Source of the DNA: a virus
Lineage: Duplodnaviria; Heunggongvirae; Uroviricota; Caudoviricetes
IMG/VR virus record: IMGVR_UViG_3300026224_000022
Strand: one strand, 5' to 3'
Length of the DNA stretch: 8,120 bases
The position numbers and the translations under genes were made by a program. How positions within the stretch are numbered: the first letter of the stretch is position 1; every line of letters starts with the position of its first letter. Below, piece after piece: positions 2,280 to 8,120 of the stretch. The notes beneath the pieces are model-generated. The model did not search any database, was not told where the DNA came from, and saw only the letters and a list, made by a program, of their open reading frames with translations.

Positions 2280-2383
2280 TTTTATATCAAAGATAACGAA
2301 CAGGCAGGACGCCCACGAAGTAGCCGCCGGTGGCGTATGAATGACCGGATGATTCGTTAAATACTATGTGTAAGAGAGCGCAA

Positions 2384-2587
2384 ATGAACCGTTATTTCAC
2401 ATGCTCGTTTTGTGGCGCAAACGAGCTGCAGGCAAAAAAAATCATCGCCAAAGGCGGAAAAGATGAAGTTGCTATCTGCTCTGAGTGCGTAGTCTTGTGT
2501 GTCGGGGCATTAATCAATATCAGCACAACTATTCAGTTCACACCAAATGAGAATGCGCCTTTAGATGCGCGGAAATCTGGAGGTTAA
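2384..2587 (+). CDS. Small protein (67 aa) resembling the ClpX N-terminal C4 zinc-binding domain
   Basis: ATG at 2384 with AGAGAG 5 nt upstream (track start 2366 has no SD). MNRYFTCSFCGANELQAKKIIAKGGKDEVAICSECVVLCVGAL matches the ClpX ZBD pattern as I recall it (CSFCG ... K/R-x-I-A ... IC-x-EC-V-x-LC), with all four Cys present. No AAA+ module follows. Confidence 0.75.
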   Translation: MNRYFTCSFCGANELQAKKIIAKGGKDEVAICSECVVLCVGALINISTTIQFTPNENAPLDARKSGG

Positions 2588-6550: not shown

Positions 6551-7122
6551 TGAACAACTTAATGATCGACCTTGAGACGATGGGGAAAAATAAGGATGCA
6601 CCGATCGTTTCCATTGGCGCGGTGTTCTTCACTCCAGAAACCGGAGACATCGGACAAGAATTCTATACGGTTGTTAGCCTGGAAAGTGCTATGGGGCAAG
6701 GAGCTACACCTGACGGCGATACCATCCTGTGGTGGTTGAAACAAAGCCCTGAAGCACGAGCTGCAATCTGTATTGATGATACTTTGTCGATCAGCGATGC
6801 TCTCTCAGAACTAAATCATTTCATTAACCGGCACGCAGACAATACGAAATATTTAAAAGTCTGGGGTAACGGAGCCACCTTCGACAACGTAATTTTACGT
6901 GGAGCTTATGAGCGAGCAGGACAAATCTGCCCGTGGGCATACTGGAATGACCACGATGTACGCACGATCGTTACGCTTGGGCGTTCCATCGGATTCGACC
7001 CCAAAATGGACATGCCTTTCGATGGCGAACGGCACAACGCCCTGGCTGATGCCCGTCATCAGGCAAAATATGTTTCCGCTATCTGGCAGAAATTAATTCC
7101 TGCCACCAGCACAGAATTATGA
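6550..7122 (+). CDS. DEDDh-type 3'-5' exonuclease, 190 aa
   Basis: ATG at 6550 overlaps the upstream stop (TGATG), with GAGG about 7 nt upstream. Motifs MIDLET (Exo I: D, E), WGNGATFDNVIL (Exo II: D) and HNALADARH (Exo III: H...D) are present. In K-12 CPS-53 only a 46-aa fragment (ypdJ) remains here, as recalled. Confidence 0.85.
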   Translation: MNNLMIDLETMGKNKDAPIVSIGAVFFTPETGDIGQEFYTVVSLESAMGQGATPDGDTILWWLKQSPEARAAICIDDTLSISDALSELNHFINRHADNTKYLKVWGNGATFDNVILRGAYERAGQICPWAYWNDHDVRTIVTLGRSIGFDPKMDMPFDGERHNALADARHQAKYVSAIWQKLIPATSTEL

Positions 7123-7158
7123 TTTTCCCGGGTGCAGCCGGTTTTGATGGAGAAAATT

Positions 7159-7440
7159 ATGAACACCTTGTTTTTACTGATGGCTGAATTCAATACCCCT
7201 AACATTGAACTCTCAGCAGTTAGCCAAAAGTACTTTGGCATGAGTCCAGCCACGGCAGAAGCAAAAGCAAACGCTTGTAAGTTGCCCGTTCCAACATATC
7301 GCATCGGCACATCACAAAAAGCAAAACGTTGCATCAATATTCAGGATCTTGCGGAATACATAGACAAAAGACGAGAAGAAGGACGTATCGAGTGGGAACA
7401 GGTCAGAACAAGCAAACAGAAGGGCAAAGAACATCACTAA
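7159..7440 (+). CDS. PrtN-family / excisionase-like small DNA-binding protein, 93 aa
   Basis: ATG at 7159 with GGAG (7149..7152) 6 nt upstream; the track start at 7132 is GTG. N-terminus MNTLFLLMAEF... and a basic C-terminal half resemble PrtN-type pyocin activator/excisionase-like proteins (by-eye, from memory). It is the last gene of the plus operon, in the same terminal position torI occupies in KplE1. Confidence 0.7.
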   Translation: MNTLFLLMAEFNTPNIELSAVSQKYFGMSPATAEAKANACKLPVPTYRIGTSQKAKRCINIQDLAEYIDKRREEGRIEWEQVRTSKQKGKEHH

Positions 7441-7446
7441 ATAAAA

Positions 7447-7468
7447 AACCCGCCTAAAGGCGGGTTTT
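7447..7468. terminator. Bidirectional rho-independent terminator
   Basis: AAAAAACCCGCC-TAAA-GGCGGGTTTT: 6-bp GC stem CCCGCC/GGCGGG (7449..7454 with 7459..7464) flanked by an A-run and a T-run. Lies between the convergent stops at 7440 (plus) and 7488 (minus). Confidence 0.75.
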
Positions 7469-7487
7469 CAAAAAGCACCAGCTATGA

Positions 7488-7661
7488 TCATGCTGCTTTG
7501 CGACGACGAAGCTTACCCTGCTGCTCTTTACCAGAGACAGTAGCGTGAGTGAACGCATTAGGAGCAGCCTTCATCAGAACTTCAACAGCAGCACCCATAC
7601 CTGCGAATGCTTTCATTGTGTCGAACTTAACCTGTGGCTTGGTTGCTTTTTGATCTTCCAT
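7488..7661 (-). CDS. Small protein, 57 aa, Ala/Lys-rich (absent from the ORF track, below its length cutoff)
   Basis: Hand translation of the minus strand: ATG at 7661..7659 with AGGAG 6 nt upstream; MEDQKATKPQVKFDTMKAFAGMGAAVEVLMKAAPNAFTHATVSGKEQQGKLRRRKAA; stop TGA at 7490..7488, followed by the bidirectional terminator. Confidence 0.6.
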   Translation of the reverse strand: MEDQKATKPQVKFDTMKAFAGMGAAVEVLMKAAPNAFTHATVSGKEQQGKLRRRKAA

Positions 7662-7700
7662 AGAAAACTCCTGAAGTTATACCGAAACAATTCCTGTTGT

Positions 7701-8120
7701 TTACTCATCATCAATAGATGATACGCAATATTTATTTTTAAATTTAAGGTTCTTTGGCGTAACTTCATCAGAGATATCAAAACCGTCCAGAATTCTATTG
7801 AATGTAGCTTCTGGCATATCATCATGAACAGAAATCTCACCCGATCGCTGCTTTCTAACCATGTTATCCACTCGCCAAATTATAGCTTCAGCGTAAACAA
7901 CATAACTTGGATGCTTGATAAAGCGATGATCACCAGAATTCAAGACGCAAGACGGATCGTGGGGGACACCATCCTTGATACTAGAAATATTAACAACTAA
8001 AACACAATAACAATCGTTAACGGGGTAATAAACAGGATCATTACAAATCACATGAAGATGATTGCATGGCCCAGTTGGGGCAAGCACAGTTCCTTTCCTG
8101 TATGGCTGATAATCCGTCAT
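7701..8120 (-). CDS. Hypothetical protein, 139 aa or longer, AT-rich gene
   Basis: ORF begins with ATG exactly at the window edge (8120..8118), so the true N-terminus and RBS may lie outside. Stop TAA at 7703..7701. AT-rich codon usage unlike the prophage core. Several Cys/His (GPCNHLH, NDCYC, DPSC); no family recognised. Confidence 0.6.
   Translation of the reverse strand: MTDYQPYRKGTVLAPTGPCNHLHVICNDPVYYPVNDCYCVLVVNISSIKDGVPHDPSCVLNSGDHRFIKHPSYVVYAEAIIWRVDNMVRKQRSGEISVHDDMPEATFNRILDGFDISDEVTPKNLKFKNKYCVSSIDDE

Follow-up and report, generated by a model that had tools for sequence, protein, structure and literature searches.

Results

A two-gene module at the right edge of the window

The window analyzed here is an 8,120-nucleotide stretch of DNA from a virus of the Caudoviricetes (IMG/VR record IMGVR_UViG_3300026224_000022). 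Its rightmost gene is an open reading frame (ORF) of 139 codons on the minus strand, at positions 7701 to 8120, with its ATG at 8120 to 8118 and its TAA at 7703 to 7701. We refer to it as ORF139 or panT, since it is predicted to encode the toxin of a PanA-PanT toxin-antitoxin pair belonging to toxin cluster T6 and having a MazF/PemK-like predicted fold. An earlier note on this DNA had described an AT-rich gene at the right edge encoding a Cys/His-containing protein, and both parts of that description hold. The G+C content of ORF139 is 38.6% overall and 31.4% at third codon positions (GC3), which makes it more AT-rich than the yfdQ, yfdR, orf269 and exonuclease genes (45.7 to 48.9% G+C; GC3, 40 to 50%). 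Its product contains 5 Cys and 6 His residues, of which H21, H23, C26, C58 and H65 never vary in a set of 54 close homologues. Homologues of ORF139 fall into 62 clusters at 90% identity, from Enterobacterales, Vibrio and Shewanella, and a profile search with the family collected 2703 clusters at 50% identity. Compared with the Kosakonia and Pluralibacter orthologues, the gene has a ratio of nonsynonymous to synonymous differences (pN/pS) of 0.07, with synonymous sites near saturation. ORF139 is a real, conserved gene under strong purifying selection.

Could the gene, or a partner, extend beyond the window, as the earlier note had proposed? Positions 7441 to 8120 are 100% identical to many Escherichia coli chromosomes. 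For one of these, NZ_AP022098.1 (locus L001 in our set), the identity with the window covers at least positions 7001 to 8120. In L001, the edge ATG of ORF139 is the first start codon downstream of an in-frame stop. Hence, the 139-codon ORF is complete inside the window and does not continue past it; only the partner is cut off. That partner is the same-strand gene directly upstream of ORF139, which encodes a 190-amino-acid (aa) "Panacea domain-containing protein" (WP_000458584.1). We call this gene panA; it lies on the minus strand at L001 8677 to 9249, equivalent to window positions 8117 to 8689 and thus beyond the window edge. The protein matches PF13274 (SocA_Panacea) at E=2e-19 and 70.9 bits, against a cut-off of 25.7, and consists of a Panacea domain without an N-terminal domain, plus an acidic C-terminal tail of ~50 aa. 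According to the L001 sequence and annotation, the two genes share an ATGA on the minus strand at 8117 to 8120, the panT start (8120 to 8118) lying on the panA TGA stop (8119 to 8117). The same overlap occurs in the other identical E. coli chromosomes and in Escherichia phage SKA5. The earlier note was right that a partner may lie outside the window.

To follow the pair across species, as the earlier note had suggested, we scanned homologous loci, taking one genome per species. This gave 32 loci with relatives of the toxin (30 to 87% identity) in Gamma-, Beta- and Alphaproteobacteria. A same-strand upstream ORF of ~185 to 195 aa touches or overlaps the toxin start in all 29 loci with scannable upstream sequence, and in all 29 this ORF matches PF13274. 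The distance between the two genes ranges from -4 to +27 nucleotides (nt) and is -4 nt in 14 of 26 loci. The outer flanking genes vary from locus to locus, and PanA identity and PanT identity, each measured against the E. coli proteins, are correlated (Spearman 0.82). We conclude that panA and panT form a self-contained, co-inherited two-gene module.

In E. coli, panA exists as two alleles of ~97.4% nucleotide identity (L001 8677 to 9249 and L039 1201 to 1773). They differ by 10 synonymous and 5 nonsynonymous codon changes, and panA is therefore also under purifying selection. The toxin gene beside the two alleles differs by one base. This pattern of divergence suggests a recombination boundary close to the panA/panT junction. 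Upstream of panA, a promoter scan found one weak sigma-70-like match, at chance level, and a repeat search found a 9-nt palindrome only. At 90% identity, ORF139 clusters together with the 190-aa Panacea proteins and with a "DUF4065" protein of 232 aa; this mixture is probably an artefact, produced when gene models that are mis-called or that read through the ATGA junction chain the proteins together.

The start codon of panT

RefSeq begins the toxin at a GTG, codon 12 of our ORF (8085 to 8087, minus strand), giving the 128-aa protein WP_014640052.1. Several observations bear on this choice. Across codons 2 to 11, synonymous positions vary between genera while the amino acids are kept, and codon 12 in other genera is GTT, ATA, GTA, TTA or CTG. 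Conservation of residues M1, P6, K9, G10 and T11 reaches 90% or more across the 54 homologues, and strand beta-1 of the predicted structure begins at residue 10. The phage SKA5 record already annotates the toxin as 139 aa. The true start is probably the ATG at 8120, coupled to the panA stop, and the RefSeq GTG start is probably wrong; the product would thereby be corrected from 128 to 139 aa.

ORF139 is related to catalogued Panacea-linked toxins

In a survey of DUF4065/Panacea gene neighborhoods, Kurata et al. (2022; PNAS, PMC8832971) defined 88 clusters of PanT toxins. Within the part of their Dataset S1 considered here, cluster T6 includes "Yersiniaceae bacterium 2016Iso4" (toxin WP_101821906.1, overlap -1), "Pantoea septica LMG 5345" (overlap -4) and entries from Proteus, Pluralibacter and Photorhabdus (PMC8832971). 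It also includes a Pseudomonas moraviensis pair, WP_083354365.1 / WP_083201923.1, marked "EndoA/PemK/MazF-family RNAses ... TA" (PMC8832971). Two of these entries correspond to loci in our scan. The first, L006, is the Chimaeribacter 2016-Iso4 genome; its toxin is exactly WP_101821906.1, the overlap is -1, and the protein is 55% identical to ORF139 (E=4e-49). The second, L007, is Pantoea septica LMG 5345, with an overlap of -4 and a toxin 56% identical to ORF139. Because ORF139 is 55% identical to a toxin whose accession is listed under T6, and because the P. septica genome is listed there too, sequence comparison with these entries of the dataset places ORF139 in T6, an already catalogued PanT cluster.

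The statement in the earlier note that no family could be recognized thus stands in part. It is correct for Pfam, NCBIfam and PADLOC, against which ORF139 alone gave sub-threshold noise only (ICMT and DapC); it fails because the family has been catalogued as PanT cluster T6. The same note had named a toxin among three kinds of possible cargo, and this is the option that finds support. The E. coli prophage pair itself is absent from the portion of the Kurata et al. dataset that we examined, the NetFlax supplement did not contain the accessions, and our search for later literature on the PanT T6 family found none.

One T6 member has been characterized. The P. moraviensis toxin is toxic in E. coli and is neutralized by its PanA, with which it forms a stable complex in a pull-down assay (PMC8832971). 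When the toxin is expressed, incorporation of 35S-methionine (35S-Met) is selectively lost, i.e., translation is blocked (PMC8832971). Pseudomonas phage Sirocco (OR683410.1) carries a related pair. Its toxin homologue (132 aa; L038 1486 to 1884) shares 48% identity with ORF139, and its PanA shares 49% with E. coli PanA. The Sirocco PanA starts with MIFSEQKVAQ, an extension that Kurata et al. had put back on the P. moraviensis antitoxin; the Sirocco toxin starts with MPG, as does their primer. The Sirocco phage record has no annotation for the toxin; an ORF of 44 codons on the opposite strand is annotated instead.

Predicted fold and conserved residues of PanT

An AlphaFold2 model of PanT, built with 54 homologues, has a predicted local distance difference test (pLDDT) score of 90 and a predicted template modeling (pTM) score of 0.84; it shows a beta-barrel followed by three helices. 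In a Foldseek comparison with the Protein Data Bank (PDB), MazF accounted for all of the top 50 matches, and several of the best viral fold matches were named "PemK-like protein" or "Endoribonuclease." The barrel is of the SH3-like type common to CcdB and MazF. Nine named MazF/Kid RNase chains and an unnamed Klebsiella pneumoniae toxin chain, 7bye_B, score above CcdB. Among 107 diverse family members, H21 is invariant, and conservation reaches 90% or more at L22, D55, C58, G63, H65, F67, S72, Y76, G113 and S117.

Where would these residues lie on MazF? We compared them with the MazF catalytic residues, namely the Arg at R25 (Bacillus subtilis) or R29 (E. coli) and the Thr/Ser at T48 or T52. 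An hhalign threading, which is without statistical support, used some approximate MazF-family sequences and can be taken as suggestive only, puts N20 on the catalytic R25, with H21 next to it, and S46 on T48. The same unsupported threading drops the loop carrying D55, C58 and H65 onto the beta3-beta4 RNA-binding loop of MazF. The EndoA query sequence was checked against 4me7. A search of the PDB with the single ORF139 sequence found nothing real.

Distribution of panAT among E. coli genomes

We looked for panA (coverage of at least 80%) in 5426 complete E. coli genomes and found it in 208. The full toxin gene accompanies it in 203 of these and a truncated one in 5, while no genome carries the toxin without panA. 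Strain 7_33_46A illustrates the truncated class: an IS903B insertion (L035 2500 to 3641) leaves the first 47 toxin codons, and panA is intact. In the PSJ-23 prophage remnant, panA and panT have both decayed. Decay of the toxin alone, and never a toxin that lacks its antitoxin, is the pattern predicted for a live toxin, seen here in small numbers.

panAT occupies an exchangeable slot beside dusA

The earlier note had placed the gene in an end-of-prophage position past an excisionase-like gene and a terminator. Both features are present. The last gene of the rightward phage operon is a PrtN-family, excisionase-like gene, xis (7159 to 7440 by RefSeq coordinates, plus strand; PF11112, E=4e-23; phrog_1300, excisionase). 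A terminator scan found a hairpin at 7444 to 7469 (L001 8004 to 8029) with an 11-bp stem containing 6 GC pairs and T/A runs on both sides. It lies between xis and a convergent 57-aa gene, orf57 (7488 to 7661, minus strand), which has an AGGAG of its own 6 nt ahead of its ATG and matches phrog_2741, of unknown function, at E=8e-36. orf57 is probably cotranscribed with panAT, and the hairpin probably ends a panA-panT-orf57 transcript. The 57-aa protein is rich in Ala and Lys and has a basic C terminus (RRRK).

Might orf57 be the partner of ORF139, as the earlier note had suggested? It is missing from all 29 homologous loci of other genera, and together with xis it occurs in E. coli prophages that have no panAT. 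Since orf57 is distributed independently of the module, we reject it as the partner; the gene that is conserved in this role is the Panacea gene upstream. The 57-aa gene belongs to the phage backbone and lies outside the toxin-antitoxin module.

In L001, a displaced 5' fragment of dusA lies ~250 bp beyond panA, about 0.8 kb from ORF139, and is followed by the core genes yjbM-like, zur, yjbJ, dinF and lexA. It follows that a prophage integrated in dusA ends with panAT as its last module. In the packaged phage SKA5 the gene order is int, dusA-like phage attachment site (attP), panA, ORF139, orf57 and xis, and a protein 100% identical to ORF139 is encoded by both SKA5 and phage Lys8385Vzw. The alternative that ORF139 is core chromosome flanking the attachment site is ruled out by the dusA-prophage context, by its occurrence in 208 of 5426 genomes and by the SKA5 phage genome.

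More than 300 further genomes, including those of O157:H7, carry xis and the 57-aa gene at 98 to 99% identity and diverge exactly upstream of the 57-aa gene. In O157:H7 and others, the slot that begins there (window positions ~7662 to 7700 and beyond; L034 4031 to 4906) holds a gene for an unrelated 177-aa protein, WP_000956557.1. This protein matches phrog_4350, of unknown function, and had no match in Pfam or PADLOC. Between xis/orf57 and the dusA junction, these prophages thus have a slot for exchangeable cargo. The suggestion of horizontally acquired cargo at the prophage end is thus borne out by the short distance to dusA, by the presence of the module in a minority of E. coli genomes and by the different slot contents in O157:H7.

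Farther left, the window departs from the L001 prophage. Aligned with L001 without gaps over its full length, the window has 1969 mismatches, and the first 500 bases have no exact match in L001. Hence, relative to the L001 prophage, the immunity and early-left region (positions 1 to ~3000) is a mosaic. A 73-aa ORF (2366 to 2587, plus strand) that lies just after the gene for the cI-like S24 repressor encodes a ClpX-type C4 zinc finger (PF06689, E=1e-10; phrog_5259). Such a small protein is unusual for a phage; it might interact with ClpX or with substrates of ClpX.

Discussion

We consider it likely that ORF139 is the PanT toxin of a type II PanA-PanT module of cluster T6, carried beside dusA as an autonomous cargo of a temperate phage, and that it arrests translation unless held in check by PanA. 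An earlier reading of the gene as cargo, possibly a toxin, with its partner outside the window, was largely right. The ATGA overlap, the strict pairing with a Panacea gene and the decay of the toxin alone are what a real toxin would produce. We propose that panA and panT are translationally coupled through the overlap and that PanA keeps PanT inactive by binding it directly. Once freed, PanT would arrest translation; most likely, it would cut mRNA or tRNA at the equivalent of the MazF active site. The acting residues would be the family-specific H21, S/T46, D55, C58 and H65 rather than the Arg/Thr pair of MazF. Loss or triggering of PanA would release the toxin, which could stabilize the prophage or abort infection by other phages.

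Several points weigh against this interpretation. First, 8 of 25 PanTs tested were nontoxic in E. coli (PMC8832971), and the identity of the P. moraviensis toxin to ORF139 (~45 to 50%) is inferred only through the Pseudomonas phage homologue. Second, the kinship between PanT and MazF is one of predicted fold and is not seen at the sequence level. None of the 107 members matched PemK_toxin (PF02452) or any other Pfam family above the gathering score, apart from two unrelated single-member matches, and the 107-sequence family profile found no chain in the PDB. Aligned by hhalign with B. subtilis EndoA, that profile gave a probability of <1%, and it did so again with six MazF-family sequences (four of them approximate). 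No Arg is conserved in the PanT family at the position that the unsupported threading aligns with the catalytic Arg of MazF, which is N20 or H21. Third, the 5-versus-0 asymmetry in decay is a small sample, and the five truncations are possibly not independent events. Finally, the scan of PADLOC-DB 2.0, a defense-tool check that the earlier note had proposed, returned no match at E<=1 for PanA, PanT or the 57-aa protein. We know of no defense phenotype for the PanA/PanT pair.

Might the module be a genuine PanA-PanT pair whose toxin is not an RNase? PanT could then use H21, D55, C58 and H65 as a metal site or as a Cys-His-Asp center and, for example, modify or cleave a translation factor or a tRNA. 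The set of invariant or near-invariant residues among the 107 members (H21, D55, C58, H65, S72, Y76, G113 and S117) fits this idea, as do the failure to conserve the MazF Arg/Thr pair as such and the lack of sequence similarity to MazF; moreover, the published data on the T6 relative show that translation stops and not by what mechanism. However, the fold neighbors of known chemistry are metal-independent RNases or, at a lower score, the gyrase poison CcdB, and the threading, for all its lack of statistical support, sets H21 and S46 at or next to MazF catalytic positions, as would befit a substituted RNase. We therefore regard a non-RNase PanT as unlikely.

A different proposal is that ORF139 is Panacea-linked phage cargo that does not arrest growth in E. 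coli. Its product might instead be, for example, a regulatory partner, a partner that binds RNA, or an effector active solely against an infecting phage. The nontoxic PanTs mentioned above lend this some weight. Nevertheless, the toxicity of the validated T6 member was seen in E. coli itself, and the strict pairing, the coupling through ATGA and the decay of toxin genes beside retained antitoxin genes all speak for a toxin, which makes inert or regulatory cargo quite improbable. That PanT is a CcdB-like DNA gyrase poison rather than a translation inhibitor is scarcely credible, since CcdB is outscored by the MazF/Kid chains and 7bye_B, all of the top 50 Foldseek matches are MazF, and the T6 relative blocks incorporation of 35S-Met and not of thymidine.

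A bolder proposal, which we offer as a doubtful one, is that the T6 PanTs share the MazF scaffold but make up an enzyme family of their own. The active site would combine the invariant His with the conserved Asp, Cys and His, replacing Arg/Thr, and the target or the chemistry might therefore differ from those of known mRNA interferases. Under this proposal, panAT of this phage might be an abortive-infection system in which the Panacea domain senses incoming phage. A role in phage defense would be plausible for a toxin-antitoxin pair carried by a prophage.

No new kind of system is revealed here; panAT is a new E. coli and coliphage member of a described toxin-antitoxin family. The analysis proposes a function, toxin of a Panacea pair, for a "hypothetical protein" of ~4% of complete E. 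coli genomes and of at least two sequenced coliphages, and it offers an E. coli-native, easily testable representative of T6. It shows the xis-dusA attachment slot of this phage group to be exchangeable cargo space. Within T6, the unusual conserved residues deserve attention, as does the fact that so large a toxin family lacks a curated (Pfam) family model.

How does panAT compare with known systems? In its position, it resembles the morons of temperate phages that sit beside the attachment site: the cassette is AT-rich, has an upstream region and a terminator of its own, runs against the neighboring phage operon and is placed between attP and xis in a slot whose contents differ in related prophages. 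The label differs from the other comparisons in naming a class of location and no mechanism.

With SocA-SocB of Caulobacter crescentus, the pair shares the antitoxin domain, SocA_Panacea. SocA was the first Panacea/DUF4065 antitoxin described, and SocB belongs to cluster T10 (PMC8832971). PanA, however, scores only 14 bits on the NCBIfam SocA equivalog model, for which the cut-off is 190, and the SocB toxin is unrelated to the T6 toxin. SocA works as a ClpXP adaptor and not as a stoichiometric inhibitor.

The comparison with MazF, PemK (Kid) and EndoA (PF02452) concerns the toxin. In each case a small toxin is encoded downstream of its antitoxin, and the T6 relative of PanT stops translation. 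Motifs reminiscent of MazF are also present in PanT: "KGT.." on strand beta-1, and "VVNISS" in the place of the MazF "VAAIT" or "VPCTT." It differs in having the H21, D55, C58 and H65 set and no conserved catalytic Arg, in the additional loop of ~24 residues (48 to 71) and the two extra C-terminal helices of the model, and in its antitoxin, which is a Panacea protein and not MazE/PemI.

The closest likeness is to the T6 pairs of Kurata et al. As in those pairs, the antitoxin gene comes first and overlaps the toxin gene by 1 or 4 nt, the antitoxin is a Panacea domain without an N-terminal domain, and the toxin is a protein of ~130 to 140 aa with a MazF-like predicted fold and no CDD/Pfam match. 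The difference lies in where the genes reside: the E. coli module is phage-borne, beside attP, whereas the P. moraviensis entry, in the part of the dataset considered here, is flagged "NotPhage."
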